Shown here: piece after piece, positions 9,201-62,700 of the stretch
Position numbering within the stretch: position 1 is the first letter of the stretch
Layout: each line of letters opens with the position of its first letter
Assembly (NCBI GenBank): GCA_030141605.1
Contig: JAQGDQ010002386.1
Coordinates: forward strand, 124,001-188,000
Reading direction: 5' to 3'
Length of the DNA: 64,000 nt
Source of the DNA: Tubiluchus corallicola
Taxonomy: Eukaryota > Animalia > Priapulida
Notes under the pieces: generated by a model
Told to the model about the DNA's origin: nothing
Seen by the model: the letters and a program-made list of their open reading frames with translations, nothing else
Databases searched by the model: none
Program-made: the position numbers and the translations under genes

Positions 9201-9311
9201 AAAAAAGCCAGTGAAAATCCTGATATTGATGTAATCAACAAAGCCAGCAAGAAAACAAATTTTGAAGAGCTAGAACATAGTGATTCAGATTTGGAAGAAG
9301 GTTATGTGTAA
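1309..9311 (+). CDS. PPM1H: PP2C-family phosphatase PPM1H/J-like gene, 3' part (5' exons lie outside the window)
   Basis: Exons 1309-1427, 3662-3725, 4859-4966, 5657-5808, 6476-6661/6665 and 8414-9311 have AG/GT boundaries and compatible phases. Translation matches PPM1H motifs (HLLGNDFCHLEF, ARVLATIGPTRGLGDHDL, ILASDGLWDV, SGDDITVFIVPL). Confidence 0.9.
2020..2085 (-). mobile_element. Degenerate 5S rRNA-derived SINE head
   Basis: Minus strand reads ccgaaattagacaatgactggtttggctgctaactggatgggtggccac, which aligns to the 5S internal control region (gaagctaagcag...ggatgggagacc). Confidence 0.4.
3197..3286. repeat. (GA)n microsatellite
   Basis: Long AG dinucleotide run; explains the SL- and ER-repeat ORFs. 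Confidence 0.95.
3662..3725 (+). CDS. PPM1H: PPM1H-like exon
   Basis: ttttgcag|G...AAG|gtaagt; AYKMVAIEDTKFPLIADKGKK. Confidence 0.9.
4859..4966 (+). CDS. PPM1H: PPM1H-like exon
   Basis: cacag|GCT...GAG|gtaagt; ARVLATIGPTRGLGDHDLRVFDTNLYVKPFLSSVPE. Confidence 0.93.
5657..5808 (+). CDS. PPM1H: PPM1H-like exon with the metal-binding DGLWD motif
   Basis: tttag|GTA...AG|gtaaac; VEVIDLSTEEYGPDDVVILASDGLWDVTSNETAAEIV... Confidence 0.93.
6255..6325 (-). mobile_element. tRNA-derived SINE head or decayed tRNA-like sequence
   Basis: Minus strand shows an A-box-like tgtagtgtaatgatt and a B-box-like gtttgcatccc at tRNA spacing; no intact cloverleaf. Confidence 0.35.
6476..6665 (+). CDS. PPM1H: PPM1H-like exon ending the PP2C domain (stop TAA 6663-6665, or donor after 6661)
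   Basis: ctcag|G TAT...; YTSAAQDLAMHARGLL...SGDDITVFIVPL...SK*; the stop lies inside AA|GTAAGT; AATAAA at 6865-6870. Confidence 0.9.
7374..8344 (-). mobile_element. Tigger/pogo-like (Tc1-mariner) non-autonomous DNA transposon
   Basis: TA|cagtaagt...acttactg|TA terminal inverted repeats with a TA duplication. A minus-strand remnant, NPETERSSEVRHCVANALQC, resembles a Tigger transposase C-terminus. A related right end occurs at ~46860-46955. Confidence 0.6.
8414..9311 (+). CDS. Acidic low-complexity terminal exon (298 aa), probably an alternative C-terminus of the PPM1H-like protein
   Basis: Long open frame in AT-rich DNA. Acceptor tatgttttag|G is phase-2 compatible with the AA|gtaagt donor at 6661. 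D/E/S-rich with 12-aa repeats. Confidence 0.7.
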
Positions 9312-17836: not shown

Positions 17837-18413
17837 AGGAAAGCCAGAACTCATCTTAAACTATAGCTCAAAACAATCTACCCTATAATAATAATATTGA
17901 AAGGAAACATACTATTTCTTTCAATACTGATTTACGCAAAAGAATTATTACTACAGAAACGTAATTTCGCATTCGCGCTGTTAGTTCTTCGTTGTTACTG
18001 CTGTTACATGCATTTCGCAATTCGCTAATTACATCGGAAGAGCGCCTCTCAGTTCAAATGTGTTCAATTTTGACGTAGTGCAGACGTCCGAGAGCTACTG
18101 GCAAACTAGAAATTTGAATTTAAAACTTAAAATTTGCTGAGTTTTTGTGTATCACGCTGAATGTTGTACAGTAACACTGTACTTCAATTTTCGCTTTCGC
18201 AAACAGGTGCACCACGCTCGTGAAATGTTTTTGTGCTGTTGAAAATTATGTTCAGTTGTGATGTCATCACTAGTTAGGCTCGCTTGTCGTTAATTAGGTT
18301 ATAGTCTATTATTTAAGTACCAGAAATACTTTGGTAGTGCTATAGGTCTTAAAATGTGTACTTTTACCGTACCTCAAAATGGGGTAGGATATATAAATTC
18401 ACACAGTTTTTCT
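17837..18413. mobile_element. Kolobok-like non-autonomous DNA transposon, copy 1
   Basis: TTAA|aggaaa...ttttct|TTAA ends; collinear similarity to 40029-40610 (e.g. tgtgatgtcatcactagtt.ggctcg). Confidence 0.55.
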
Positions 18414-21400
18414 TTAAATGTAAACTTTTGTGGACCATTTGTGGTATTGGACTCTGGTTTTTTTATTTATCTATGCGTTTTCAAATCATGCAGTAATTTT
18501 TCTCAAATCGAGTTGTACCGATTTTGAACTCATTGCCTGCATATGTTGATCGTAACTGCACAAAATATTAAGTTATTTAAAAGCCGCTTATATAAATTTA
18601 AATAAATAAAGTTACCTTACATAAATTCCTTGTCCTCAATAGACACATGCTAGCAGTTAATCTCTTTGTGTCTTTACCACACTCTTGTAAATATTTTATT
18701 TGTATGTTTTTCCAACGTGTTTTATATATATTGTTTTTATTATAGACTGTATTTTACTATTGGGTGTGAATAAAATAAAATAAATAAATAAGATACCAAA
18801 CGCAGAGGTCGGTTAGCTGTCTGTAGGTTCTGAGCTACGTCTCTTTATTTTGATACTTTCTAAATCTGTGTATTCAATATGCTTGCGGCTACAACGTTTT
18901 GCTACAAGTATGCATTCACCCGCTTTATGTTCTGCCGTTTCTACTCGTCCTTGTACGGAAACGGTTGTTCACATTGAAATAGAATCACCAAAGTTGTATA
19001 TGAAATTAAGCTTCTCTTGTACATTAAAAACTGAAATTTTTCTACAGCACTATCTTCTTGTGACTTTGCATGATTTTCTGCGTTTTGGATCGACCTCTTT
19101 TACGATGTCCTTTGCATTATTTGTAGGCGCGCTACGTCAGTAGAAGTTTGAGGAAAGTAGTTGAGAACCGTGATTATTTAGAATGTATAGTAACCACACA
19201 TGTTACACTGACACACAGCCGTAGTTCATTGTATTGTTTTCTCAGTAGCAGTTGCTCAAATTTTCATGTTAAACCAGGAGTCTCACCTGCATGGTTTTAG
19301 GAACGTAATGATCTTAAGTGTGTAAGATTTTCTTATTAATTGTAAATATTTACTTGAAATTTTATTTGTTTCTTCCTCTGAGTAGATGAGTGAATTGCAA
19401 TAAATTTATTTAATTTATTGTGTGTAGATGTTTGGTTTATAGGTCCTAGATATTTTAGTGTTTTGCCGTAACCGTAATATAGGCCGCTTAGCGGTGAAGG
19501 CCTACACTAACAGGTGTGAATTGTCGTTATTATAAACAAAGGATTCGCCACTGTCAACGAGACGTAAATATTGTCTTGTTTACCACATTGCTCACGTATC
19601 TACAAAGTACAAATACTAGCGAAAGAGCGCTTGATTTGTTGTTTCTAATTTACCTGCGTCCTGCAGCAAAGACTGGCTCACAGGTTTGAGAATGTTTATT
19701 CAGATTATTTCCTTAGCTTATTGGCTGATATGTATTATCAAGCTCAAAATTGAATGGTATACATAATAAGCTTATAAATTTAATTGCAATCGTCCATTTA
19801 TAATAATTAATAGGTTGCTTGATGAGTGAAACTCAATGGTAAATGAAAAGCAACAGACCTGCGCTTTTTTACTGTACAATCACCGTCTTCTTTTAAGTGA
19901 GAATTTCGCCAGTTTCCGCTTGATTTCTTCAGTTTTGTTTTCATCTTTAAGCCATTCGGTTTACTTTTGAACAAAATAAAGGGGTTAACCCTGCGTTTGT
20001 TTGCTTTTCCCATGTTTACATTATTGTGCAGTGTTTACTTTTCGCTCATCTCATTACCGCTATCTCTGTAAAACTTTTTCAATTTTTCATATCGTCCGTA
20101 CAGTCATTGTAACCATGTGAAGTGAATTAAACTTGAACGTGTACAATGAAACTGAAAATTTCTGAACATTTGAACCGTCCCTTGAGTTTATTCTGTGCTG
20201 CTGTGAAGCATATTCTGTTGATGATGGCAGAAGGTGCCTAGAAACAACAAGATTTTTTTAAAAAAATTAAACATTGGCAATGGTTTATCCTGATACTTCA
20301 TTAATCCGGCGTTACATTTTTAATCCCGCCTGATTGTTTCATATTATGTTCTGTTCGAATAATTGCTCTTTGGAGAACTTGTGTCATATGGGGACAGTCG
20401 ACTTGCTGTGTCAGCGTAAAACCGAAAGTAACAAAATATTTTCCATGAACCAATCATTTCAAACAAAAACAAGTTTTATGACTTATCACCAAAACGCCAA
20501 CACATTTGTTAACGTGCTCACTTGGATGATTCCTTGCTCAGTCTGATCCAGTGTTTGTTCCTCTTAATCTTAGCAATTTGTAAGCATCCATTCTGCTAAA
20601 AATTCTAACTGAGGTTCGAACAAACTGAGGGGTAATCTCCGGTAATTTCAAGTCTGTAAGTTGTCGCAGCCGGTATATGTTGTTATAAAAATTGAATGAT
20701 ATTAGAGACAGGTTAAGAGAAAAGAATTCACGAGCTCTTCTAATACTTTGGTTCTCCTCAAGCATCAAAGAATTTTCTTTAGTTTTGAGCAAAAACTAAA
20801 ACCATGGCCAATTTTATCAATACTTTACATCGCATGCGTGAGCATTTTTGATAAGTTAGTGATTAGAAACCAGTGGCAGTTGTGCGCAGTTTTTGTATTC
20901 ATTTACTCAAAGCATATCGGAGCGCTTGAAGCGCCATTATTAATGAATATTGATGCTGTAAGTTAACATGATTGTTTCGTATGAAAGGTCCAGGTGCTAC
21001 TTGGAGTAAGCCAAGGTCATTTTTCTTACAATCTTGACAAGATCATAAGATGGGCACATTTACTTTGACGCCTAATAAAACTCATTCTATATTTGTCTGA
21101 GAAATTTTACTATCCTTTCATTCTTTTCGCTTTTCATTCCTGGTCTAGGCCTTGGATAAACTTATTGTGAAAATGCAGTTAAACTCTTGCTAAAAGATTA
21201 AAAAATTCTTTTGCAAAACGTCTCTTGTATCTATTGCACATCAGAAACGATTCTGTTAAACTCAAACCATGTCGAATTGACGATGTTTAATATTTTATTC
21301 TGTGGTATTTGTAAAGTTTTCGAATGCTCCTTTATGATGGCTGCTAGCTTGCATTTTGCTGAAAAGTGTTTTAATTTGACATAAATTTTCACGGACATGA

Positions 21401-40028: not shown

Positions 40029-40610
40029 AAAACCTGGCTGAAATCTTGAATTATAGCTTAAAACAATTTACGTTATAAAATATTGAAAAGGAATGTATAA
40101 TTTTTCAAAAATAACTTACATGAAGGAATTATTACCACAGAAATGCAATTTCCTATTCGCATGGCTAGTTCTTTGCTGTTACATGAGCACTACCGCTTGG
40201 AACATTTCGTTAAAAACAGGTGTTGTACCTCTCAGTTCAGAGGTGTTCAGTGGTGATGTAGTATGCACGTTTGAGAGCACTTGCGTGAGCACAGCAATAA
40301 GCTTGAAATATAAATTCTAGACTTATAATTTGCCAAGTTTTTATATATCACACTGTATATTGTACAGTAGCACTGGACTTCAATTTTTGTTTTTGCAGAC
40401 ATATACAACACACACGTGCAATGTTTGAACTATTGAAACTTATGTTCAATTGTGATGTCATCACTAGTTGGGCTCGTTTGCTCTTCATTAAGTTTTTAAT
40501 CTATTATTTAATTATCAGAAACACACTGTGACATCATTACCGATGTTAAAATGTATTCTTTTTCTGCAGTTCAAAACGGGGTGTGTTATGAAAAATCATC
40601 CTGTTTTTCT
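40029..40610. mobile_element. Kolobok-like non-autonomous DNA transposon, copy 2 (partial third copy at ~40670-41001)
   Basis: Flanked by TTAA on both sides, ends ...gtttttct|ttaa, and is collinear with 17837-18413. Confidence 0.55.
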
Positions 40611-43600
40611 TTAATCATGTCATGATGGCAGCATTGTTAGATTATTCATTAATCCAGTGATGAGCTTAAAATGTGAAATTGTCAATTTAAATTTGCGATG
40701 TTTTGTATTTAATTGTCAGTCTTATACAGTAGTGCCAAGCTTCAATTTTTGCTTTTGAAAATGTGTGAAACTCTCATGATGGTTTCTACATTTAGAAAAA
40801 TTTTCTCACTTGTAAACTCACCGTTACCTATGCTTACCTGCTGTTAATGAATTTTTTCATATAATTTCCGTAGTGCTCCCGTAGGTATAATATCACAGTC
40901 TCAATGTAAATCAGAAACTTTTGGTAATTATTGTAGTTAATAAAATGTATGTCTGAGACCAGGTCAAAAGAGTTTGGTCTGAGAAATCATACTATTTTCC
41001 TTTAAATAAATTATCATCTAAAGACATAGTTTTAATATAATGACGAGTTTTGCACTGTGTTGCTGCGATTAGCGATGACCACTAATTTATATTAACAATG
41101 GACAAAAATTGTTTCAGATGAGCGGTCCAGTTCTTCCCACTAAATGACATTATGCTTATTTATGCTATTGCTGTCTGCCAGCGCTTTCATTAATTCATGG
41201 TTGTGCTAGAAAAATTGTGAACAGGGTAACTAACAGACGGAACATTATGCAATGTACTGTATTTTAGTACAAATGCCAATTACCAAATGCAGCATGCCCA
41301 GTGTCTAATTCATCCACATGTGTTACAGTATTGTGTTCTATAATTCTCCTCTTTAAGACAAGTCATCTTACCATTATACTTCTACATTGTTTAACTGACA
41401 AAAAGAAACTCTAACATATGTTTATTGTTTAACTTTGCATTTTGGTTATCACCAAGATCGTTTAATGTACTAACATACAATTTTATTGACTATATCTTAC
41501 TGTGACATTTTTACTTTTTTATGTTTCTTTATTTTAGAAATGTTTTAAATAATGCCAACATTGATTTCTTGAACGTGTAACTTTACTTATATTTTATAAT
41601 CTTTAATTTATTCAGGGTTCTTATTAGGGTCACCATAATTATTATTTTTGTACATAGCTTATTAACGTACATTTATTATTTTATGTAAAAATGATGTGCT
41701 TATTCTATTGCTTATGTTAGGACAATTTTAAAAAAATCCCTTAGGTCATTTATTAGCGTTTGATTTTGTTCATGTTAGATAAATGTCAGCAATACTTTTA
41801 TTGCATACTTTATCAAAAATTGAATTTTTCATTTTTTGCCATAATTAGATTGTAATTCTAACCAAATAGAATAAACTGATAGTTTCAACGTCGAGATTAA
41901 ATAAAAAGTACAGAGAATTTTGTGATTTCAATAATTAAATTGTTTTTCGCTTCGCTTAATATCTTTTACAAACTTATTTTTCAACTTTACGAATTTGTAG
42001 TTCGATTTCTGATGAAGGACATTTTTGTATAACTGTGACTAAACAAAAACTTACGTTTGCTTACACTTACTGTTAAAGGGCAGTAAAATTCAATGACATA
42101 TCTTGAAGATTTCTTGAAAAGTAAAATTAATTGCATAATAAATATTTTTATGGCTACTATTTGCTGTATTTGAGAACATTTGAGTCCAAATTTTTGGTTT
42201 TGTCATAAAAAAACGTGAATTGTACTGAGGCAAATTTATTTTGCTGTTAACATAAATACTGAACACATTACATTTATTTCAGGTGATAGTGCTATATTTC
42301 ATTCATTTTCAGCACTAACTCACTAGTGGATTTCAGCAAGCCAGCCACTCAGTCAATTTCCCTCTTAAAACGAGAAATTTTTAGTACATGTGCACTTAAG
42401 TAATGATCTGATTTACTATTTTGCATTTAATGACTTTGTTTCAAAACAGAAAATGGACTAGTAACATCTCCATAGTTATACATAAAAACTTAGTACATTA
42501 TAAATTTACGAGTATCTTTTTATTTTTCACAGACGTATTACAGTACTGGTGTTACCATAACAACAATCATTAATCACACTACATGGTGGCACAAATGTTT
42601 TTAGACATATAATTACAATATAAATAGGAATATCTAGCATAAATGCTATTACTAAACATATACATTATATAAATATACATCTGTTTTGTACGTACGTGCA
42701 ACATGACATCATCACATACTATAATGACTACACCAAATGGTGGTAACATTTACGTACTTCTTGAACATCACGAAGGGTAAAATTGAATTAAGTATAACCA
42801 AGGCAAATGAAGTCTGAAATTGCCAGTAGAGAAATTTCCTTTTTTTTACTGTGACTATAACCCAGTATTGTGAGGTCAGAAAATCGTTCAAACCATCTGC
42901 AACTATTCAACACTTAGCAAGCACTTTCTAAGAAAAGAACCTAGCTAGGACCACTAATGGAAGTAAACTGTGGAGCCTGTATAATATTGTTAATGAAACT
43001 GATTTAAACAAGTACACAAACTTACTTCACTAGTAGAAAAAAAAGGTACAAGTAACGCAGAAATTCGAAATTCTGTAAATCCAGTCTAGCTTAGTCATTC
43101 AGGACTAGTGCAATAAATAATTCAGAAACTTGTAATCATAACATAATAATGTAGCATTCAGAGTCGAGAGTTTTCTCTCAAAGAAACTTGCAAGTTTTAT
43201 ATCAAGAAATGTGCAAGTGTCTTCACACTAGAAAGCAGTGTCTGCTGTGACTACTCTAAGACAGTAATCATAAGCAAAACCTTATGACGGATAATGTAGC
43301 GACATTGAGGTTAAAAGAAATTTACTCTTAGCAAATTGATTGTCTTTGCAACAGCTAGGAACTGTCAAGAGGTTTCACAATGAAAACAGGTCGTGTCTCT
43401 ATTCAAAGCGAGAAGTGTAGAAAAGATGCAGATAGTAAACTCGCAGCAGGGGCATTTACACTAAACAGTAATCAACTCGTAGCTCTTGTCTGCGACTTCG
43501 CAATTTCTTGAAACAAAAAAGTCACAAAGCAGTTATACAAACAAATTTGCTGTAAAATAGAAAATTCTGCCGTTGGCCCAAGTGCAGAAAATATATAAAT

Positions 43601-47700: not shown

Positions 47701-50700
47701 CAATAATTCACGAATTCTTATTAAAAAAGTTTAGACGACAATGGTGGTTACAGCCTATACTAGTAAAATAGTGACCGTGACTAGTAGCTACTAACTATTT
47801 AAAAGCTTAATGCATTTGAAACAATATTTGATCATAATTTCGACAACTGTGACCTTCTATAACATTCTAATTTAAACAAGTACAGACAGCAATAAGCCTT
47901 TTATGCTATAAAGTGATGCCAGGACTCTCTTAATTCTTTTTAGGCAGTTTCACGCTTTTAATAATTTAGACCACTTGTGCACCTACTAATGATTAATGAT
48001 GACATACGGGCTCGTTTTTGTGCCTTGTAAATCCACTAATGGTCACCTGCCTGCAGATTGAGCCAAGTAAAACAAGGGTAGTAAAATATTCCCTTGGGTC
48101 AAATAAGGGACCAACTTGGAAACAAACATTTAGTTAGGAAAAATATGAGACTACTCGCTGGAGACATCATCTTTAATGATAAGAATAAAAAGTCCATGAG
48201 CTTTATTAGAATCAGAAGCAGATATTCTTTATTGCCAAAAGATTTTTTAAAAATCTGCTTTAAAAACTAATAAAGGGCATTCAACTTTTTATTCATGATA
48301 ATAAACATTTAGATCCTTTAGGTAAATATTATCCCTGGTCTATACCCAAAACAAGCTTTTTACAGTAAGTTGCTAACCCAACCAAGTATACTTCAACTGT
48401 GGTTTCTTTACTGCCACAGAGCTACTACTGGCTTTCAGTACTATCATGTTTACTCTCAAATAAGGATAAGTTCGACGAAAGACGCAAGATACTTGAATTT
48501 TCTGAAACTACCTTCTCACATGGTAATGGAAAAACCAGGGCTGTCTCTCTCTCCTAGTCAATGCAACTGTGCTTTTCCTGTGTTTCATTTGTTGTGCCTC
48601 TGCAACTTTAATACGTGATTGTATGCTTTTATGTGTGATGTTTTTATTTGTAAATAATATAAAGAAACCAAAAAATTGGTTTTAGAATCTTTATGTGTTT
48701 CCCCCTTTTTATTTCAAGTCTTGTGTCTTTTTATTGTATTAATTGTGGGATTTTTTAATAATCAGCAAGGTGTGCAACTGGCTAATAACCACTAAAAAGA
48801 ATTTCAACTAATTAAATAAATTCTTTCCTAGGATTAGGAAATTAGGTGTTTCACAAATCTAACTCAGCCAGCACATGCATGGATATCACTGACAAACTGT
48901 ATGTCTGTTCTCCATCACATAAATATGACAAACCAGTTATTAAAATTTAATGCAGAATTGAAAATATTACGGTTAACCTGTTTTTTACTCAAATACAGCC
49001 AAAGTTATACAACACACTTACATAAACTAACACTAGCTCAACAGTACCATATCAAGGCCTTGCTCAAACGAATATCAAGTACCTGGCATAAAAGAGTTTT
49101 TCAACAACCATGAACAACAGCAAGTACATTTGTACATGAGTACATCTATGGAATATTTGGCAAAATCCATATGGGCTGACAAAATCCTTACTTCAAAAGT
49201 TGAAAGAGTGCTAGCATACAAAAGATGTTTTTAGAGCACTCGGTGCTTGTTTAAAAGACTTGACATTGGGGGCATTAACAATACCACTGCTTAAACTGTT
49301 CCATTCCTGCACAACACGGTAGGAGAAAAATGCTTGCTGATATGTGTGCATGAATGCTGAATATATAGTTTTTGCTAATGACATCAATGTAACTCTCTAT
49401 GAGGATTCTCAAAGAACTCACTCCGATCCAAATTTGTGGCCGGATTCACTATCTTGAACATGCAGACAATTGTGTCATGGCTCTAATCTAGGGTAGGAAC
49501 TGATATCGTTGGCAAGACGAAGACATCTTCTTTGGACTTTTTTATCTTCTCTTTAAAAGATACAGATTGCAGTGCCCTAATAACAACAGCATATTCCAAC
49601 AAAGGACTAATCAAAAGGTTTGTATATAGGTACAGCAACTGACGGCTCAGGGCATACGACTCTCTAATGATACCAATTCTTTGTTTAGCAGTCTTACATG
49701 AGTAATATAATTGTTGCTACCATATGCAGAATATCAATTGGAAGGTGCTGCATAGGAAGAGCAAGAAAGATGGTGGAATGCTTTTGCCCCCTAGTAAGGC
49801 CTACAAAAAGGTTAAGAAGATGCATTATGAGCATTTTGTGAATTCTTACAACATCATTGAATCATGACTAACACACATTAGGGAAACAAAGGCTGTTAAA
49901 GGGCAAGAAGAATTAATGAATTTTGCAGATGACTCGAGAATGGCCCCAGAAATACTGAATCATTGACCAGTATTAACAAAATAGAAGAAATAAATAATCA
50001 GACAAATCTTTTGTGTATATTAGAGAAACTCCCAATGTACCTTTAACCAAGACAGAAAACAGAAGCATATAAAATTAGAATAAGTCAAAAATGAAGTCCA
50101 ACAGTTGACAATGTAGTGCATTTTGTTTAAGCTGCAGCTTTAGAAGCAACTGATCCAGTTTTCGGTAATTTAGGGTATGCCCAGACCAAGAAAGAAGGCC
50201 CCCAGATAGTGTTTACACGGGCAGCAAAAATTAGACTCTGGTACCCTTTTCCTTATACTCGTGGGGTACGCAATTGTTAAGATTCAGTAGCAGTGAAGAG
50301 ATGGTCTTTATTCGTACATAAGAACAACGACTGGCGCATTTCACCTAACCACAGCTGTTAGGCCTGTGTCACACAGAAAAAGCCACAAAAAGCAAGCCAT
50401 AATCCGTAAGGTATAAAGCGTCTTCCATCTTCCGTAAGGTGCATGTCATAATTCGCAGTATGCGCCTTGCTTTGTATAACTATGCGGGAGACACAAAACT
50501 ACTATATTTTAATATAATAGGTACTATAGTTTAATAGTTAAAATAATTTTACTCATTACAGAATAACAGATTGTCAGTCGCATACGTTGTATATGCATAA
50601 CATGATTGACTGGCATGCTGCCTCCTGCATGTAGTATACATTTATTATATGTATTGTAGTAATATGGCAGTAGTAATTAAGTGCTGTGGGTTAAATATGC

Positions 50701-53700
50701 CTTTTAATGTTTATAGTACATCGATGTTATGAATTGTTTTATACGTAATTCTTATGAAATGAATTTTGCATAGAAAAGCTTAATTATGCAAATTTTCACA
50801 TTAGTGATAAGCAAAAATTCCTTATGGCAAATGAAATTAATGGCCAAAGGCTCAAAACGGCTTGCAAAGCTCCACTAGAGACCTTGATAACATAGTTGCC
50901 CAATTCTGGCAGGTGGAAGTGTGTGAAGATGAAACCACTATTCTGAAGAAGATATCAAGATGATTATATATATATACTAATACTAATCTGTAATAAAACA
51001 TACAGAGAATGTACAGTAATAAAATGTTGTAGGAGGATTCAGTAATTCTACCTAAGGATAATCACTACCAATTGCCAACACTATTGACAATTGATAGTGA
51101 TTATGCTTAGATAAACCCAATACCATTCTGAAGCAAGTATCCTGAGCTCCCAAAAACTTACCTGTGCTCCCTGTGGCACAGTCTAGATTGCAGGGTCGTA
51201 AAAACAAGCTACAAAATGACTGTGGAAATCTTAAATTTGCTAAATATGGCATATGCCGAGGAAATAAATGCCAAAAGTATTAATGGCAGCCCTAGAAAGA
51301 TTTGGTATTAGCCTCACTTTGCAGTTAGTAAAACAAACAAGCCAGATAAAAACAAGAATTGTGTTTAATTGTGCTGTTCAATTTGAAGGTACTACTCTCA
51401 ACAGGAATGTTACGCAGGGCCCTGCTTCAGGAGTTGTGCTTAAATTTAGAAAAAACCAAATAGATTTCATGGCTGATCATGAATGCATGTTTCACCAAGC
51501 AAAGGTACTGCAGAGGATAGTGATATACAAAGATTTTTATGATGGGAAAATGGTTGTTTAAACGCATAACCAAAAGTCTACAGAATGGCCGTACACACAT
51601 TCTGTGGAATGTGGTGACCAAGTGCAGCAGCTTTTGCACTCCAGAGTACTGCAAGGGATAACAGGCATTTGTATGATGAAAATGTATTGGAAGGCCATTA
51701 ACTCCGATTTCCGATGATCCCGAGGATGCAGAACCATTGAGGCCAAATCGTCTGCTTTTGGCTCACAATCACGCTTTGCTGCCACAAGGTATTTTTTGAG
51801 ACTGATCGATACAAACACAAGTGACAACGCATTCAGCTCTTAGCGACAACAACAACAACAACAAAAAATAGACTATGCCAAAGAGAAATCTCAAAGTTAA
51901 TGATGTGGTGCTTGTGAAGGAGATCAGATATCTGTAGCCACTGTGAAATATGTAACAAGCTCATGATGGCCTGAAGGAGTGAAGGATAGATTTTTGGAGC
52001 AACCCATACAGAAGCTTTGTCTTCTGAAGGGTGCTGACAAATTGCTTGTTGAACATGTTTGTCAAAATGCTCTGGTCAAGTTTGCATTAGAGAGGGGGAG
52101 TGTTGCTGCCATATGTAGAATAGGAAGTTGGAAAGTGCTGGCCTAGTTATGAATGGACTTTGTATTTGAAAGAGACCTTTACAATGGGTAGAATAATCTT
52201 CTTACACACTGCATACCTTTCAATGTAACCATTTTGGGCTGTACTCTTGCCACTAGCATCTCTTCCTCTCACATTTCTATCTTCATCATCCTGCCTTCCC
52301 TTGCACATTTTTACTCAGCTTCACTGACAGACATTGCATCTCTTGCTCTGATGGCACATATAGCTGTTACAGCTGGGCTTTAAGCATTTGAAGCAAAGTC
52401 TTTTCTTTCTGGACAGCTCCAATCTGTCTTCTGGCTTCATGGCAGCCAAGTTTGCACATTCAGTTACGAAGTGTTCACCTATGCAGATGCTGCATGTACT
52501 AGGTCTCTTTGACTCACCTGATATTTTGAATAAAAAATTTGTTAGGCAACTTGCTTTAGCATCTTTTCTCGCCGTGAGTTTCTGGCATCTGTTCTTTTTC
52601 GGTCTGTATATTCTAAACTGATTTAGTAATCATTAAATTTCAGTGATCACATGGAAACCCGAGCCAAGATATCAGATCTTACCACCATAAGGCATCATGT
52701 GATTAAGTAAAAACATAGAAGGTATCAATAGTGACTTGTATAATTCTGAGAAAAGCACACTCAACAGTTTCAGCTGAAGAAGCCCACTGGTCAGACTGAG
52801 ACTCAATACTGTCGAGATCTATTGTGGTCGTAAACATGTCAGAATCAAATTGTGATTTGATTTTAGCATATAATTTTAACAAAGCAGGGCTCCAATAGAA
52901 AGATGCATCCTTTATCTACACACTAATATAAAGAAAAGTTGAAACATACCTCCTATTCATAAAAAAATTACTGTTAGCGTCACGAGAACAGACTAAGACC
53001 GAGCGATTTCCTGAAATGTTTTCATTTGGGAGTTAGCAGATAGCAATATTTTTATCTACTGCTGTGTGCCACAGCCTAGGTGTTTTGGATATAAGCACGT
53101 GGTGCCTCCTGGTGTTTGTTTTTCCTAGTTTAGACAGGTGAGCTAGGTCAGGAAATAGGCCATTGGCCTCATTTCACAGTTAGCATATGAAAGAAGTGAG
53201 TCACCGGTATGCGGCAAAGATGTAAGTTTCATTTCTTCACATTTCGTCATGTCATATTATTATTAATTATCATTATACCAGTTACTTAATGTTTTGACGT
53301 TGGTTTAGCAGAAAGAATTTTTAATTTTTCTTCAGCTAAAACGAAGTCGAACGCATGTCGCGTACAGTTTTATATCTCAGTCTGTGTACCTAGAAGAGAC
53401 GGCCATATTGCTTTCGAGAACAGAACACCTGGACAAGGGTAGTACAGCATGGCTTCCGGGCAAGGACGAGATTTGTTGAGACTAAATGAAGAACAGCTTC
53501 AGCAAAAAACCGTACAAGAGTTAAGAAAGTTGCTACGGGATAAGGGATTACAAGTCGCTGGAAGCAAAGCAGAATTAGTCCAACGAGTACTGGACAGCGA
53601 GATTACTGCAGAGGTAACCACGCCTACTTCAAAGAGTGAGAGTGTTAAAACGGCTCGTGACCAATCAGGCGAGGTGGGAGTGATGCAAACGGACAACACC

Positions 53701-56700
53701 ACGTCCAGCAGTGTGAAAACTTCTGCAACAAACTTAAGCAGGTTTGATTTGCATGCCTTGAAAATTAAAGAACAGAAACTAAAATTACAAGCCATGGAAA
53801 TCAAACATTTGAGCCTGCAAAAGGCTAGTCAGGGTTCTGCTAGTTCAGATGTGGCTTCGCCTGTAGCCAAAGAAATATCAAGTGCAGAAAAGGTCAATGA
53901 GTGGATTGAAAAGTCACACAAAGATGTCACAGAAGTCTCGTCACCTGAAGGGCTCATCAAACCCGAAGCTTACGTTACTATGGCTACCAATGATAAATAC
54001 GCCATAGGTGCTCTAGTACTGGCTTCTTCGCTATGTAATGTTGGTATTACACTTAGTTTAGCGATATTAATTACAACTGGAATTTCTAAACCCATAATGA
54101 CGCAGATAAGCGCCACCTTTGATCACGTGGAGCTTGTGGAAGCTATTGACAGTTCACATGTAAAAAGTCTACAATTACTAGGACGGCCCGAATTAAAGGT
54201 GACTTTTACAAAACTGCATTGTTGGAGGCTAACTCAGTTCTCAAAATTTGATTTTTGGATTCTGATGTAATTGTCCTGCAAAACATAGATGATTTATTTA
54301 GCTGGAACGAACTGTCAGCAGTTGCAGATATTGGCTGGCCTGATTGTTTTAATAGCGGACTTTTCGTTTTTGAACCTAATCTTAGCACGTACAGTGAATT
54401 GAGGTCATTCGCTCAGTCAGATTCAAGCACATTCGACGGTGGAGAGCAAGGTCTACTAAACCAGTATTTTAAAGCCTGGAATACAGCTTTTGATAAACGA
54501 TTGCCATACAGGTATAATGTAGCAGTAAAGCAGTTTCGAGAAAGTGTCAAGGTTGCTCATTTCATGGGTCCTAGTAAGCCCTGGGACAGTATACGCAGCA
54601 TTTATCACAAGCAAGTGGCGCCAGCTACAGGTAAAACAGACTTTGAATCTGAAATGTTAAATATTTGGTGGTCACTTTACATTCATGAGGTCGAACCAAA
54701 CTGGCCTCATGAATTAGAACTAATAAATAAAGCTAATGTTCAGCAGCACATTCCTACCCGAACAAAACTCAGTCCTGATGCACCTGAATTTGCCACTCGC
54801 TTACATGACAGGAGCAGTGTTCATAGAAAATTATACACATGATGACGGGGCGAGATATACCAGGCTTTTACAATTTTGCACGGGCGAAGCAAAACGGGTT
54901 GTCGAAAGTTGCAGTTATATGGACCCGCAGATCGCATACAGTCATGCTAAGCAAATGCTTATTGAACGTTTCGGGTCACCCTTTATTGTAACACAAGCGT
55001 GGTTGGCTAAAATAAATGAGTTTGCAGTCATAAAAATAATGAAAAGGAAAAACTCAGGGAATTTTCTGACTTGATGATTGGTTGTGTAGAGACATTAAAG
55101 GCCATGGACAATTTAGCCGAAATAAATACACAAACAAGTTTGCTTCAAGTCATTAAGAAACTCCCATTCCGTTTGCAAGACAAATGGAGAGACGTTGTTA
55201 CCAAGTTAAATAAACATGATGGCAGAAATCCTACAATTTACGACGTGGTGGGATTTGTCAAAGAGGCGACTGAAAAAATAAACCATCCCGTGTTTGGTGA
55301 CCTTGCAACCGGTGGTCAAATGAACATTACAAAACGCAAGAATAAATTAGCAACTAGGAATTTCGCATGCACTACCTTTCGAACAAGAAGTTCATCCAGA
55401 GAAGAAAAATCGAGTCAAACAGGCGGAACGCCAAAGGATAGAAAATTAAGCAGTAGAGATGTCAGAAAATGTGTTCTGCAACTCAGCCGAGCATGTTTCT
55501 CTAAAAAACTGTGAACAGTTTAAAGACAAGTCGGAAGAAGAGAGACTACAGTTTGCTCGGAAAAGTCGCTTATGTTTTAACTGCTTACAGAAAGGGAACC
55601 AAAGAGCTGGAAGCTGTTACAAACCAGGCTGTACAAGACAGGGATGCAGAAGAAAACATTCTGCTCTGCTTCATGACGCTCTGGAGAAGTGGGCTCCTTC
55701 CAATGGCGAGAGGTCAACAAATGTTGAAGCAACAAGTTGCGCTGTCACTACAACCAAACTGTCAACAAGGGCTGTGCTCCCCATCACTCCTGTAAAGGTA
55801 CAGGTGCAAGGCGGACGTCCAATTCAGACAATGGCTTTGTTGGACCCAGGATCAACTAATACGTTCTGTTCCAAGGCCATATATGATGAGCTGGGAGCTG
55901 TTGGCAAGAAACAAGTCGTGTCACTGACTACAATTGAAAAGAAGCATTCAAAAATACATACTTCTGTGACCAAGATGTACGTCAGTAAGTTGGATGGATC
56001 AAACAAAATGAAACTTCCCTTTGTCTTTGTCAGGCCATCTTTGATGTTGGATGTGACTGACTATTTGGTAGACGAACAAGACATTAGTAACTGGCCTCAT
56101 CTCAAAGATGTTCCTTTGACGCTAGCTGATTCACGTGAACTGCAGCTCGGGTTAATTATAGGACAAGACGTCTCTGATGCATTAATGCCTTTAGAAACAC
56201 GCTGTGGGCCAAGAGGAGTTCCGTATGCAACAAGGACTAGACTTGGATGGACATTAAATGGCCTGATAGGAGGCGGCAATGAGGACACTAAAAAGCTGTC
56301 AAACAACCTTCTTCAGGCAGAACAGGTTACCAGCCAGCGACAAGTCGAAAAATTTTGGAAAATGGACGCTGTTGACGATAGCATACAGTACTCCCATGAC
56401 GATAAGTTGGCGCTGAGCATTTGGGAGAAGTCCATCACCAAAAGAAATGGTCACTACGAATTGGAGATACCTTTTAAGTCTAATGATGACAACATTCCTG
56501 ACAGTTTTCAAATGGCTTCAAAGAGGTTGGCAAGCCTTCGCTGTAGACTCAGCAAGAATAAGTTGTTGCATGAAAAATACTCCCAAGCCATGGCTGATCT
56601 GCTCCAAAAGGGATACGCAGAAGAAGTTGTTGAACATGATACGAATGTTGCAACATGGTACTTGTCACATTTTCCAGTTTTTAATGAGAACAAACCCGAA

Positions 56701-59700
56701 AAAACTAGGATCGTATTTGATTGTTCGGCAACAGAAGACGCAGTCTCTCTCAACATGTTGGCACTACAAGGTCCAGATCTGACTAATAAATTGCTTGGTG
56801 TCCTGCTATGCTTTAGAAAGTATCCAGTAGTAATCATGGCTGATGTTCGTGAGATGTTTCACCAGGTGTACGTAGCACCGAAGAATAGGGACATGTTGAG
56901 ATTTCTCTGGTGGAATGATGGAAACCTAGATGCGCCACCCTCCATATTTCGAATGACAGTCCACCTTTTTGGCGGTGTGTGGTCGCCCAGCGTAGCTTCA
57001 TTTGCTCTCCAACAGACAGCTAGAGATAACGTCAACTGTTTTGATGAGCATGCATTAAATACGGTGGTACATAGCTTCTATGTCGACGACCCCTTTAAAT
57101 CTGTGGAAACTGCAAAAGAACCAATCGATTTGATGTCAAAATTAATACAGATTCTAGACACTGGAGGTTTCCACTTGACCAAATGGATGAGTAACGACAG
57201 AGACGTATTAGCATGTGTGCCAATTGAAGAACGAGGAAAGAACATTAAGAATCTTGATCTAACCCAGGACGATCTACCAAATGAACGAGCCTTAGGGGTT
57301 AAATGGGATGTCAAAAGCGATATACTTGGCATTCAGGTTAAGCTGCGAGAAAAGCCAAGCACCAAGCGGGGACTACTTAGGTCATTAGCAAGCACCTATG
57401 ATCCCCTAGGCATGGTCTCGCCTTTCATTTTACAAGCGAAAAGACTGTTTCAGAACGAATGCCGGATCCAGGAAAAATCATGGGATGATAGACTGGAAGA
57501 AGAGACTGAGAAAAGTTGGGATAAATGGAAATCTGATTGTCCTGCACTAGAATACTTTACGCTAGACAGATGCCTGAAGCCAAGAGATTTTGGAAGAATT
57601 GCTGACTTGCAGCTGCATCACTTCAGCGATGCATCCCAGTATGCTTACGGCACTGTAACTTATGCACGGATGGAAAATGCTGATGGAGTTGTACACACAG
57701 CATTTGTAATGGCAAAGTCTAGGCTAGCACCTATGAAAAGCCTAACCATACCACGCCTTGAGTTGTGCACAGCAGTATTAGCCTCAACTGTCGACAAACA
57801 ACTGAGAAGAGAATTGTCCATACCCATCAGCGAGTTCGTGTTTTGGTGTGACAGCACTATAGTGCTTCAATACATACGCAACACCACAAGACGTTTCCAT
57901 ACTTTCGTGCAAAATAGAGTGACTACCATACTAGAAACTTCGTCGCCAGTTCAGTGGCATTATATCAGTACCGCAGATAATCCAGCTGATGACGTATCCC
58001 GAGGAATGGACGCCAATGCCTTAGTAAAATCTCAGCGTTGGAAATATGGTCCTAGTTTTCTGCGAAAAGCCCAACATGAATGGCCGCAGCATGATCCGAG
58101 CAAAGAAAATGATGAACTTAACGACGATAAAGAAGTCAAGCAGACGACATGTTCCACTACTGTAAAACACATACAGGATAGAAACGACACAATTAGCAAG
58201 CACATTGAACATTTTTCGTCATTTTACAACCTCAAGAAAGCAGCAGCTTGGATTCTTCGTCTGAAGGACATTTTGCAAAAGAAGATCAGAGGAGAAAAAC
58301 CTGAAGTACCTCCAAAGTTAACAGTGCAAGAGCTGACAAGAGCTCAAGATGCATTAGTAAAATTCGTTCGGACTCAGAACTTTGGCATGGAATATAAGGC
58401 GCTTACACAAAAATCTGCTAAATTGATGCGCATCCCTAAATCAAGCAGGCTACGAAAACTTGATCCGTTCATTTGCGAGAAGGGTTTGCTACGTGTTGGT
58501 GGACGACTGAAGGCGCCAGGCACCCTATGATATTACCGAGAAAGCATAAGCTGTCAGAGCTAATCATTCGTCATTACCACGAAACGAACGGCCACATTGG
58601 CAGGGAACATGTCATAGCTTTAGTAAGAAATGAATTTCGGATAATTCATGCAAGAGCCTTGGCACGCAAAGTCCTGTACGAATGCCGACATTGCAGGCTT
58701 CGCAAGCCATCTTTCCTTGATCAAAAGATGGCAGATTTGCCTATTGACAGACTACAGCCATCAGACGCTTTTACCACTATTGGCATTGATTGTTTTGGCC
58801 CGATACAGACCAAGAGAGGTCGCTCACACATTAAACGCTATGGAGTCATCTTTACATGCCTAGCTACACGCAGTATTCACTTGGAAGTCCTATTTGACAT
58901 GTCCACTGATTCGGTTATAAAGGCGATTAACAGATTTTGCTGCCGCCGAAGGAAGCCAGACAAAATCAGGTCAGATTGTGGGACTAATTTTGTAGGAGCA
59001 AGCAGAGAGCTGAGAAAGTCTATAGCCGAGTGGAACAATGACGTCATACATTCAGAGCTTCTTCAGCGGCAAATAGAATGGCAATTCAACCCACCAAGAG
59101 CCCCACACATGGAAGGTGTTTGGGAGTCTCTCATTAAGAGTGTGAAGAAGATTCTCTTTCCAACGAACAAACCTTGGATGATGAAGGCTTGGCAACCCTG
59201 TTTTGTATAGTTGAAAATATAGTTAATAGCAGACCGCTAACTACAGTTTCTGACGATGTTGACGACTTCAATCCGTTGACTCCGAATCACTTTCTTCAGA
59301 TCAGCGCAGTTCCAAACCTGCCTTTGGGAAAGTTTTGTCAGGCAGATCTCTTTCGACGAAAGTGGAGACAAATACAGTATCTCTCGGATATCTTTTGGCG
59401 CAGATGGTTGACTGAATATTTGCCCACTCTACAGACTCGAAGCAAATGGAACAAGGAGCAGAAGAATGTTGAAATAGGAGACATCGTATTAGTTCTGGAT
59501 GAGACACCAAGGAATCACTGGATGCTAGGACGGATCATTGAAGCACGGAAAAGCAGTGATGGACTAGTGAGAAGTGTGATGTTGAAGACTAGAGATGGGA
59601 CTCTAAAACGACCAATTCATAAAATAAGTTTAATCGAATGTAACAATTAGTTGATTTTGTTAAGCATTCATAAACTGTATGTTTAAGTTAAACTTTGAAG

Positions 59701-62700
59701 TAGATGTATGTCAATTTAGTCAGTCATGATATGTTATTACACTGTTGGTTTCCTTTAATTTTGTAAATGCTGCAGGAGAGCATTTAAGGAGGCAGTGTTT
59801 TGGATATAAGCACGTGGTGCCTCCTGGTGTTTGTTTTTCCTAGTTTAGACAGGTGAGCTAGGTCAGGAAATAGGCCATTGGCCTCATTTCACAGTTAGCA
59901 TATGAAATAAGTGAGTCACCGGTATGCGGCAAAGATGTAAGTTTCATTTCTTCACATTTCGTCATGTCATATTATTATTAATTATCATTATACCAGTTAC
60001 TTAATGTTTTGACGTTGGTTTAGCAGAAAGAATTTTTAATTTTTCTTCAGATAAAACGAAGTCGAACGCATGTCGTGTACACTAGGTAATAGGAATGCTT
60101 CAGAAAAAAGAACCAAACTGTAAACACTGAAAAGTTAAAAAGAGCTTCAGATGAATTTTTTCAATGTGCGCCATTTTACAGTGTCTGTGTGGGCCAGTAA
60201 GTGGCGTACTCTACCGGCGTTGTTTTGTAACTTTTGATTTTCTTTCGAAACGCGGCACAAATAGCAAAGAAGGGTTGCAGTTTATACAATGAAAATTGGA
60301 ACATACGATACTTTGAGGCTTCATACTGTACAAAAAATATGACTGTATGAAGAAGAAAGCCAATGTTCTAGCACATTAAGTGCTTGTTAAGAACAATAAT
60401 TTTCTTGCTTGTAGTCCTTCGTTGTTTTGAATACATGACTTTTTGTATCATGCAACTTTGAAGGTTTTTGACTTTCCAGCAGATTTCACTTTAAAGATGT
60501 TTTCACGTGTCAGCTCCAAGATGCGTAAAGATTAGGAAACTTGAAACTTTGAAGCCCTGTACATTTCCTTGAGTACTGTTTCTTTCAGTTGCTCAGCACA
60601 TATATACACTCACATACTGACTGACCTTACTGACTAACCAGCTAACTAGCTATGATTTACTTAGTGTCGGTTAGTTATTTAATTAGTTAGTGTTGGTCTA
60701 GCTAAGCTAATCAGAGAGTCAATCAATTAGTTTTGGCAATTTTGTGGTATGGCAGGTTTGGTGGTATGGCAGGTTTGGCGATATGGCACATTTAGCACTA
60801 TGGCGGTATAGCAGGTTTGGCAATGTGGCATTTGGCGGGTGGTGTTGGTATGGGAAGGAGGTAGAGTGTCGACAATGGGACTGATATAGGAAGGTAGAAG
60901 GGTGTTAGGGTGTGAGGAAAACCACCTAAACTGCAAGTGCGCCACAATGGCCCGAAATAAAGACCACCGAGCATTCCCTTTGGAATGCCGCTATGAACAT
61001 TAATCCACTCATAGATAATACATTTAAAACTCCTGACAAAGACAATTTGTTACCTAGAGTCTTAATTGATACAAAGGATCACATTTCAGCCCCTTTAGCA
61101 CATGTTATAAACTTATCCCTCGAAAATGGATGTATTCCTAATAAGCTAAAGGAGTCGGTAATTGTTCCTTTGTTTAAAGCTAAGAACCCTATGGACTTGA
61201 GGAATTATAGACCCATCTCCCTCCTACCATTTTTTCTAAAATTTTTGAAAACTTTTTGAGTTCAGTTGTCAGATTACCTAAACAAAAAAAAATATTATTA
61301 ATACAGAACAGTTTGGGTTCAGGAAAGGTTGTTCAACTGAAATAGCTTTAGTTAAAATTGTAGAAAACAAAATAATTAAATACAGAAGGTAAAAAAGGTC
61401 ACTTGGTATTTTTTGCTACCTGTCAAAAGCTTTTGACTCGGTCGATCATGATATACTACTATCAAAACTATTTTACTATGGAATCAGGGACAAGGCTCAT
61501 CAGCGGTTAGAAAATTACCTTAAAGAGCATACACAAGTAGTTAAATATAATGGTTGTTTCTCTTCAGAAAAAATATAACTCATGGTGTGCCGCAAGGGTC
61601 AATTTTGAGACCACTTTTGTTCTAAATATATATAAATGATTTATTACATTTCCTAATTAGTTCTGTGGAAGTTGTAACTGTATATTTTTAGGTGCTGCCA
61701 TCTATTAACTAATCACTTTACATTTTACCAGCTAAACTCACCCATAATATAATTGTTCGGTCCAGTGAATATGCATACTCACTGGATCTCTCCCTATTTT
61801 ACTGTAATGGTATTTGTGAAGCCAAGTTTGCATAATTACCTATACCTATATATACTGACTGGATTCTACTTCTAGTCACTCTCTGTCTCACTCTCAATGC
61901 AGTGCAGAAGTCATGCTAGTCGTGCTACACAACTGTCTAACTCACACTCTGTGCAGTGCAGCAGTCGTGATCCTCATTTTACTTACTGTCTAACTCTCAG
62001 TGATCAGTGCAGGACATTCTTGTCCTCAGTGTGCAGTGTAGCAGTCATTCTACATATGTGTATGTAGTCTAATAAATGTTTCAGTTTTGTGCAGATATGT
62101 GGTATAGTGTTTTATTCTTTTTCTACAAAGTGTTCAACTACAACTTCATACAAGACTTTCACAAGTTCCAAAATGATTCAATATGCTGACGACACTAGCC
62201 TCCTTTTTAATATTAATCAGTTCAATGCGCAAAACACAGACAAGATAAATGATGAACTCGAACAAATTCCTATGTGATTCAAAATTAATAAGCTTTCCCC
62301 AAATCCGTCAAAAACTAAATACATTGTTTTTAGGTCGCGTTATAAAAATATTCTAAGTAATATTGACATCAACATAGCTCAGGTGCCCATAACATGAGTA
62401 AATGAAATGAAATTTTTAGGTGTAATCATTAATGAATTTTTAGATTGGCAAGCACACATTAATAAGCTATGAGTTAAAATGTCTAAAAACATAGGAATTA
62501 TTTAACATATAAAACAATATACTTCCAAAAAAACATATGATTTCACTATACAGTAGTCTTGTTTTGCCATATCTGACCTACTGTGCAATCCTGTGGGGTA
62601 CAACGTATGCCAGTGTGTTAAACAGTATGACAACGCAAATGCAACCGTCAGATGTATAACTTACGGAAAAGATTCCAGATAGGCAACAATTATTTCAATG

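Follow-up and report, generated by a model that had tools for sequence, protein, structure and literature searches.

Capture of cellular mRNA by LTR retrotransposons has been described, with a BEL element among the examples: the mosquito ENSANGG00000011308 is an LTR-mediated retrocopy lying within BEL18_AG (Tan et al., 2016, PMC5131818). In that report such retrocopies are partial, intron-free mRNAs inside one LTR element, with neither a poly(A) tract nor a target duplication of their own; they are young, their parents are known and their loci are non-autonomous elements, and some show constraint (KA/KS 0.15–0.26) and further rounds of retroposition. Rotifer LTR elements have kept captured enzymes (dUTPase, GDSL esterase and DEDDy exonuclease), the esterase and exonuclease being separate third ORFs common to many lineages, and going by the abstract no glycosyltransferase is among these enzymes and none of them is located within Gag (PMC5408684). 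BEL/Pao elements measure 4.2–10 kb with LTRs of 0.2–1.2 kb (PMC3118150). In glycogenin the DxD motif binds Mn2+ (PMC5203857) and Tyr195 is the acceptor tyrosine for self-glucosylation (PMC12267440).

The window analysed here is the whole of a 64,000-nt stretch of Tubiluchus corallicola DNA (GCA_030141605.1, contig JAQGDQ010002386.1, positions 124,001–188,000, forward strand). It contains a 7.0-kb BEL/Pao element in which a glycogenin catalytic domain of 740 nt (53962–54701) occupies the gag linker, between a SAP domain and the capsid part. Like the retrocopies above, the insert is intron-free, partial, devoid of its own poly(A) or target duplication and bounded on both sides by the same element; it differs from them in lying in frame in gag, in an element that retains gag, pol and integrase, in having the borders of one catalytic domain and in being distant from any known glycogenin. 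A preliminary description of the window had taken glycogenin not to be known as a component of BEL/Pao elements; mRNA capture by LTR elements, BEL included, was already on record (PMC5131818), and the domain is found in none of the 120 best relatives.

Anatomy of the element

The features of the element are as follows.

53076..53080, +, target-site duplication, left copy (5 bp, identical to 60082–60086)
53081..53366, +, 5′ LTR (286 bp, TG...CA; three differences from the 3′ LTR)
53449..53595, +, start of gag and SAP domain (SAP at 53497–53595; Pfam PF02037, E 7.9e-9)
53596..53961, +, gag linker ahead of the insert, low-complexity and coiled-coil-like (open frame; layout judged by eye)
53962..54246, +, glycogenin GT8 domain, N-terminal half, in frame with SAP (glycogenin-1, E 1.3e-20; 63% to P0283)
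54247..54251, +, frame break immediately 5′ of the DxD motif (window copy; absent from two other haplotypes)
54252..54701, +, glycogenin GT8 domain, C-terminal half from the DxD on (glycogenin-1, E 1.2e-36; PF01501, E 1.9e-10; fold)
54762..54791, +, PAM2-like motif in the gag linker (PF07145, E 0.044, below the cut-off; similar motif in 52 of 120 relatives)
54823..54824, +, gag deletion in the window copy (extra letters here in other contigs in four of the four runs compared)
54824..55478, +, remaining gag, DUF1759-like, in two frames (tblastn, P0163 residues 333–549)
55450..58530, +, zinc knuckle, protease, reverse transcriptase and Pao peptidase/RNase H region (Pfam; zinc knuckle by eye)
58464..59650, +, integrase and DUF5641, in two frames (Pfam)
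59786..59795, +, purine-rich tract 5′ of the 3′ LTR (from the sequence)
59796..60081, +, 3′ LTR (286 bp; three differences from the 5′ LTR)
60082..60086, +, target-site duplication, right copy (identical to 53076–53080)

The LTRs are thus near-identical and flanked by the same five bases, as had been proposed. TG...CA termini, the short target duplication, the size, the order protease–reverse transcriptase–RNase H–integrase and the presence of Pao peptidase and DUF5641 all place the element in BEL/Pao. Its Pfam matches are SAP (residues 17–49 of the frame opening at 53449), GT8 (in two frames), Pao peptidase, reverse transcriptase, integrase and DUF5641; PF05380 occurs in all the related polyproteins, and the 55450–58530 region is 40–46% identical to them. 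The DUF1759-like part of gag gave no Pfam match in its broken pieces, and tblastn with the relatives spans this region at 28–43%. Four of the 120 related polyproteins (P0175, P0190, P0203 and P0209, 43–45% identical in pol) have a SAP-bearing Gag and share with the window element the order SAP, linker, PAM2-like motif, DUF1759-like part and pol, the layout of the linker also being alike by eye, but lack the GT8 domain. Since these relatives carry SAP, it is not part of the capture.

The window copy is dead, with six breaks that leave the element without coding capacity for its own transposition. The preliminary description had placed one frame break at about 54251 and read on from the end of the domain into BEL gag motifs. 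The break is genuine (an X2 contig matches 53962–54320 with no differences) but the gag that follows the domain is interrupted, by the deletion at 54823/54824 and by four further frame changes downstream.

A glycogenin domain in frame with gag

The frame that begins with SAP continues into the N-terminal half of the GT8 domain, as originally claimed. For both halves the closest solved structures are of glycogenin-1 (E 1e-20 for the N-terminal and 1e-36 for the C-terminal half; the animal enzyme is represented by PDB 1ll2 and 3t7n), and a predicted model of the C-terminal half fits glycogenin-1 structures (TMq 0.78), so that Pfam, the searches for structural relatives and the model all identify a GT8 domain closest to glycogenin. 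Identity to the nearest sequence is 44–63% over the two halves, and the domain is distant from all of 171 glycogenins (best match 56%); a quick tree did not place it, giving a long branch. Real glycogenins as divergent as this do exist (P0106 and P0157).

The domain was said to have about 245 codons collinear with glycogenin. It is indeed collinear with host glycogenins from 53962 to 54701, but 10 codons of the acceptor arm near 54520, including the equivalent of Tyr195, are missing from the window copy and had been overlooked; an X2 contig crosses this gap with no differences. With the acceptor tyrosine gone, it is doubtful that this copy could prime itself or form the usual contact between dimer partners. 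The DxD motif is present (54258–54266, adjoining the frame break) and most invariant residues are kept. Roles in glycogenin are described for the DxD, Tyr195, Tyr197, Asp160 and Trp128.

Two further structural claims held. No intron-sized gap separates the domain from host glycogenins in the alignment: an animal-type glycogenin gene (L080) has three introns, equivalent to window positions ~54094, ~54438 and ~54531, and the domain has none there, nor do any of the 10 loose contig ends shown (of 11) fall at these sites. The C-terminal motif that binds glycogen synthase, present in 125 of the 171 glycogenins, has no match in any of the six frames of the window. The domain thus differs from animal glycogenin-1 in lacking this tail and, in the window copy, the Tyr195 loop and in being fused into Gag.

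The insert is in frame at both ends and its 3′ end stops at the domain border; no A-run of six or more, as a poly(A) of its own, was found. A similarity of 11 nt between the two sides of the insert was considered as a target duplication and rejected, being at chance level: of 290 random pairs, 47% reach that score.

Junctions and other copies

Junction contigs came from two samples (X1, X3 and X4 being one sample, which may be the source of the window); X5 and X6 had almost none of the searched words. The 5′ junction is bridged by an X2 contig (53838–53991), which extends no more than 31 letters past it on the shorter side, and is crossed by overlapping contigs with 0–1 differences; the 3′ junction is bridged by three contigs from the two samples (X2, 54528–54811, 10 differences; X4, 54528–54763; X1, 54615–54744). 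No single contig spans the entire stretch, which together with the short 5′ overhang is all that speaks for an assembly chimera, and with both junctions bridged we regard such an artefact as barely conceivable.

At least three domain-bearing haplotypes are present at 54085–54213 and again at 54206–54315, differing by up to 10 positions in 117 nt and by up to 8.5% between copies. The frame break at 54247–54251 is absent from two other haplotypes; in one other haplotype the DxD is changed, and in one the reading frame is lost in the acceptor loop; this loop falls short of the host length in both forms seen. Three loose contig ends mark cut copies, most of the linker depth has a frame-shifting loss at 53669–53675, and no unbroken copy was seen among the window copy and the contigs compared. 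One contig diverges from the linker at the very position of the junction, and a form of the element that lacks the domain may therefore exist; at the k-mer level the linker is common to contigs that enter the domain and contigs that leave it.

That the element transposed after the capture, as first suggested, is likely: the domain is in more than one copy, in contigs that phasing does not tie to particular insertion sites. The same lack of phase to the flanks, and the possible domain-less form, would also suit a retrocopy that was inserted into one resident element after its integration and then multiplied by segmental duplication. Neither a poly(A) nor a target duplication of the insert was found; the insert is cut at the domain border and is in frame at both ends, and the private breaks of the window copy are absent from the other haplotypes. 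We consider this course of events highly improbable.

Searches for similar fusions

No gag–glycogenin fusion was found in 15 homologues of greater length and 65 of nearly the same length, or in the 150 best-ranked of 921 cluster representatives, and a Pfam scan of 19 representatives with odd layouts gave none with an element domain. The GT8 profile had no match among the best 120 of 1337 long polyproteins. These blanks in protein searches are weak because gene calling seldom yields proteins from broken copies. A search of viral contigs gave nothing, and in metagenome contigs, where 80 of 118 loci were kept, none matched six BEL polyproteins. Baculovirus p13 may be a viral glycogenin-like gene, which the titles and abstract openings listed did not confirm. 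None of the titles and abstract openings listed describes glycogenin in a retroelement, and the searches turned up no enzyme domain that constraint has maintained within Gag; the supplements of PMC5131818 may list glycogenin retrocopies.

Selective constraint

Among the copies, 16 of 37 differences in the domain are silent against 22–28% expected (p 0.003–0.03), these 37 sites being unphased, not independent and drawn from 46 (six not displayed, three left out by the analyst). A dN/dS of about 1 had been named as evidence against a domain maintained by the element; the value is 0.43 (95% interval 0.21–0.88 at transition bias 2), the upper end of the interval reaching 1.03 at the highest transition bias of 4. 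Of the three outcomes that the preliminary description had named as counting against the capture (an insert with its own poly(A) or target duplication, unspanned junctions, dN/dS of about 1), none was obtained. In a linker control only 1 of 13 differences is silent (Fisher p 0.019 versus the domain), these being 13 rows of 277, chosen by the tool.

Across the 171 glycogenins, 73 columns are at least 95% conserved, and the domain differs at 9 of these, seven conservatively. When neutral decay to an equal distance was simulated, two or fewer radical changes were seen in 0 of 400 runs starting from all hosts and in 5 of 400 starting from the 54 most divergent hosts, and pure drift was thus rejected in simulation. 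Invariant polar columns are kept in 25 of 27 cases and the two altered ones are unaltered in other haplotypes; zero changes were reached in 0.2–0.8% of neutral runs, the same test being weak for the window copy alone (p 0.04 and 0.10). Constraint is relaxed, since the domain is altered at invariant columns more than 170 of the 171 glycogenins.

The conserved pattern might have been inherited, with mostly decay since, if an already divergent donor (a fast paralogue, a retrogene or the gene of another species) was captured recently. A donor gene is not in evidence, some real glycogenins are equally divergent, and the k-mers shared by contigs entering and leaving the domain fit a young event. We nevertheless think this unlikely: silent differences are in excess when copies of the element are compared with one another, these copies are already up to 8.5% apart, and no intron-bearing gene contig at 80% identity or more was found at the three usual intron sites, the contig filter being able to hide such contigs.

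A further explanation accepts capture and spread as real and holds that the domain is useless to the element, selection having kept only an open frame and a fold because the domain lies upstream of the capsid and pol in one polyprotein. An open frame is required in any case, most of the changes at invariant columns exchange core residues conservatively, constraint is partial, a domain-less form with the same linker is possible and the acceptor loop is short in both forms seen. Selection for fold alone, however, need not retain polar ligand-binding residues, of which 25 of 27 are kept, with both losses private. This explanation has a real claim, at rather less than even chances.

Proposed role of the domain

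The reading that we tentatively favour, although it falls somewhat short of probable, is that an intron-free glycogenin domain was captured in frame from spliced mRNA (supported by the alignment, the junctions and the contigs), spread with the element and was likely kept for a time as an Mn/UDP-glucose-binding glucosyltransferase module on Gag, with selection acting on its active site. Spliced glycogenin mRNA would likely have been picked up by template switching in reverse transcription, the route given in PMC5131818, and the element likely then carried the domain to several loci. As a module of Gag lying beyond the capsid part, the domain would be able to bind UDP-glucose as well as the ends of malto-oligosaccharides and would add short alpha-1,4 glucose chains. 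Because the tail is absent it would not recruit glycogen synthase, and the outcome would be a short sugar tag on Gag, or docking of particles on glycogen granules, rather than glycogen building. The uses put forward in the preliminary description, all hypothetical, were glycan shielding, docking on glycogen granules in oocytes and dimerisation with host glycogenin. As no unbroken copy was seen, spread in trans without use of the domain is also possible. A bolder version, which we hold as speculative and rather unlikely, is that the host glycosyltransferase became a working part of Gag, giving the protein a capacity to bind or add glucose that ties particles to glycogen stores, the short loop and lost tail turning a primer into an anchor.

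An mRNA captured by an LTR element does not usually last long as its cargo. The linker of a BEL/Pao gag can evidently accommodate a folded domain of 250 residues, and a testable pair is on offer in one genome, the form that has the domain and, possibly, one that lacks it. If the domain was kept for the benefit of the element, a transposon made an enzyme of central metabolism part of its own capsid protein, whereas hosts are known for adopting gag in the opposite direction, and retrotransposon particles would be linked to glycogen.

Structure of the element and its glycogenin insert

Features of this part of the window are as follows:
53081–60081, BEL/Pao element, recognized by its LTRs, target duplication and domain order
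49957, + strand, gag-like remnant
51050–51690, + strand, RT-like remnant
52160–52600, − strand, zinc-knuckle-like remnant

The element belongs to BEL/Pao. As in the preliminary description, its LTRs (286 bp, TG start, CA end) are near-identical, with 3 differences (distance 0.011, interval 0.002–0.031), and the same 5 bases stand on both flanks. Pfam gives SAP, GT8 (in two frames), Pao peptidase, reverse transcriptase, integrase and DUF5641, which is the BEL/Pao layout, and element size and LTR length fall within the ranges in PMC3118150. The element is inserted in a high-copy repeat (52881–53080), where contig depth climbs, with many alternative flanks before 52881. The three remnants are scrambled parts of another BEL/Pao element (49900–52650, both strands), and to the right lies a broken LINE-like reverse-transcriptase sequence (60930–61600, +; by eye from translation). 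Elsewhere are two diverged dispersed-repeat copies (18045–18417 and 40228–40614; 75–83% identity, ~22.2 kb apart) and an acidic, repeat-rich open frame of 305 codons (8394–9311, +), probably a host-gene exon.

Starting at its ATG (53449), the gag frame stays open through SAP and the linker into the glycogenin-like insert (740 nt, 53962–54701), up to a break near 54250. Glycogenin-1 supplies the best solved relatives of the part before the break, the match resumes after it through 54701, and a structure model of the latter part (pLDDT 80) is best matched by glycogenin-1 structures. The collinearity first reported holds to 54701, but it was overlooked that, relative to those 171 of 226 retrieved glycogenins that cover the full domain, 10 codons of the acceptor arm are missing, both conserved tyrosines included. 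According to PMC12267440, self-glucosylation takes place on Tyr195, and Tyr197 touches the partner subunit. The glycogen-synthase-binding tail is missing, as originally noted. The top identity to any compared glycogenin is 56%, and a quick tree (70 rows) left the domain on a very long branch with no placement. Judged from its sequence, the insert derives from glycogenin and lacks two defining features of a working one.

SAP occurs in 4, and GT8 in none, of the best 120 of 1337 long BEL/Pao-related polyproteins, which makes SAP the older feature, one that did not come with the capture. In relatives the insertion site is a variable linker upstream of a PAM2-like motif and DUF1759. This motif (poly(A)-binding-protein-interacting; Pfam score below cut-off) lies at 54762–54791 in the gag linker; 52 of the 120 (P0163–P0282) show its pattern, derived from the same proteins, within their first 700 residues (shuffle control 0.7 expected, maximum 4 in 200). 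No description of PAM2 in a retrotransposon gag was found among literature titles; BEL Gag may recruit PABP.

Haplotypes and decay

Contigs of four runs from two samples (X1, X3 and X4 from one, X2 from the other) were compared with the window. Those of X2 are identical to it over both the frame break and the acceptor gap, so neither feature is an artefact. One X2 contig (31 letters on the shorter side) spans the 5′ junction, and three contigs reach across the 3′ junction, one of them carrying 10 differences over its 284 letters; that the fusion is an assembly error is extremely improbable. Restoring one base was said to make 53449–54842 a single frame; beyond the domain, however, gag is also disrupted in the window copy by a deletion at 54823/54824. 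With the domain break and four further frame changes (near 55050, 55470, 58510 and 59170) this copy is dead.

Other contigs retain the gag sequence lost at 54823/54824; X1 has three forms at 54085–54213, one with 10 differences in 117; the break is absent at 54206–54315 from both X1 and both X3 contigs; and LTR starts adjoin many different flanking sequences, X1 having 19 loose ends at 53081. There are thus at least three domain-bearing haplotypes, likely representing two or more loci, and contigs cannot be assigned to insertion sites. In each of the four runs the LTR (53081–53366) is covered at least 10× as deeply as the interior of the element; depth being no copy number, this is a hint of numerous solo LTRs or of derivatives that share the LTR. 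Cut copies are marked by loose ends at 53991, 54251 and 54551, one haplotype is out of frame within the acceptor loop, and a frame-shifting loss at 53669–53675 affects most of the depth over the linker, so that, as far as observed here, the family has mostly decayed. The acceptor loop (54510–54521) is shortened two ways, in frame in the window copy and out of frame in an X1/X4 haplotype; these may be nested or independent, and may reflect a hotspot or selection against self-glucosylation.

Probable route of capture

In an animal-type glycogenin locus (L080) the domain is interrupted by three introns. The insert has none, as had been claimed, and the 10 loose ends listed all lie away from the corresponding intron sites. 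A poly(A) is likewise missing, and repeats at the junctions do not exceed chance; together with the lack of introns this is the signature of LTR-mediated retroposition through template switching, a process described, with a BEL example, in PMC5131818. A later one-off retrocopy, subsequently duplicated, is very improbable: the lack of a poly(A) and of a target duplication of its own speaks against it. Among the contigs of the four runs no joint skips the domain, but a single contig of X1 tracks the linker to 53960 and departs, with ~15 bases resembling by eye the window just 3′ of the insert before diverging. Such a contig could come from a sister element without the domain, or from a copy that lost it by deletion. 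Intron-free GT8 genes resembling glycogenin (35–40% identity) are present at many metagenome loci (L030–L077), on contigs as long as 718 kb that are probably of prokaryotic or viral origin.

Signs of constraint and a possible role

An open frame is no proof of constraint, because capsid and pol lie downstream. Of 73 near-invariant columns the domain differs at 9, and 7 of these changes are conservative (p 0.001 relative to random point changes). Neutral decay simulated to equal distance gave 13–16 changes, 9–12 of them radical, and reproduced what is seen here in 0/400 and 5/400 runs. Invariant polar residues are kept at 25 of 27 positions (p 0.04–0.10 for the window copy alone), other haplotypes being unaltered at the two changed ones. 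Both tests fit selection on the element or on a divergent donor alike, and recent capture of such a donor is rather improbable. Among copies, 16 of 37 differences are silent, compared with a single silent one among 13 in the linker (13 tool-picked rows of 277; p 0.019); dN/dS (37/46 sites, unphased) is 0.36–0.50, below the value of about 1 that was to count against the initial reading, but its interval under three transition biases (0.18–1.03) reaches past it. Together the three tests point to partial constraint. The domain has changed at more invariant positions than 170 of the 171 glycogenins, so it is under weaker constraint than a host gene; that it is a folded passenger is a doubtful but substantial alternative.

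No gag–glycogenin fusion was found in protein searches (the best 120 of 1337 long polyproteins, the best 150 of 921 cluster representatives, and 15 longer and 65 near-length homologues), viral contigs or metagenome contigs, nor any description of glycogenin in a retroelement, judged by titles and abstract starts. Capture of mRNA by LTR elements is already known, and according to PMC5408684 retroelements keep captured enzymes as extra ORFs, whereas here the domain lies in frame inside Gag; an apparently constrained glycosyltransferase so placed had no precedent in our protein, viral, metagenome or literature searches. The gag-borne domain is real, and seen under one species label only. We infer that the domain was captured through a template switch, spread as the element transposed, and came under selection at its nucleotide-sugar site. 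Beyond the observed anatomy, haplotypes, kept residues and lost tail, our tentative reading, given slightly less than an even chance, is of a Gag-tethered module that would bind UDP-glucose and malto-oligosaccharide ends and attach short glucose chains. Glycogen synthase would not be recruited, and self-priming would be impossible where the acceptor loop is short; the sugar chains could tag Gag, or particles could dock on glycogen.
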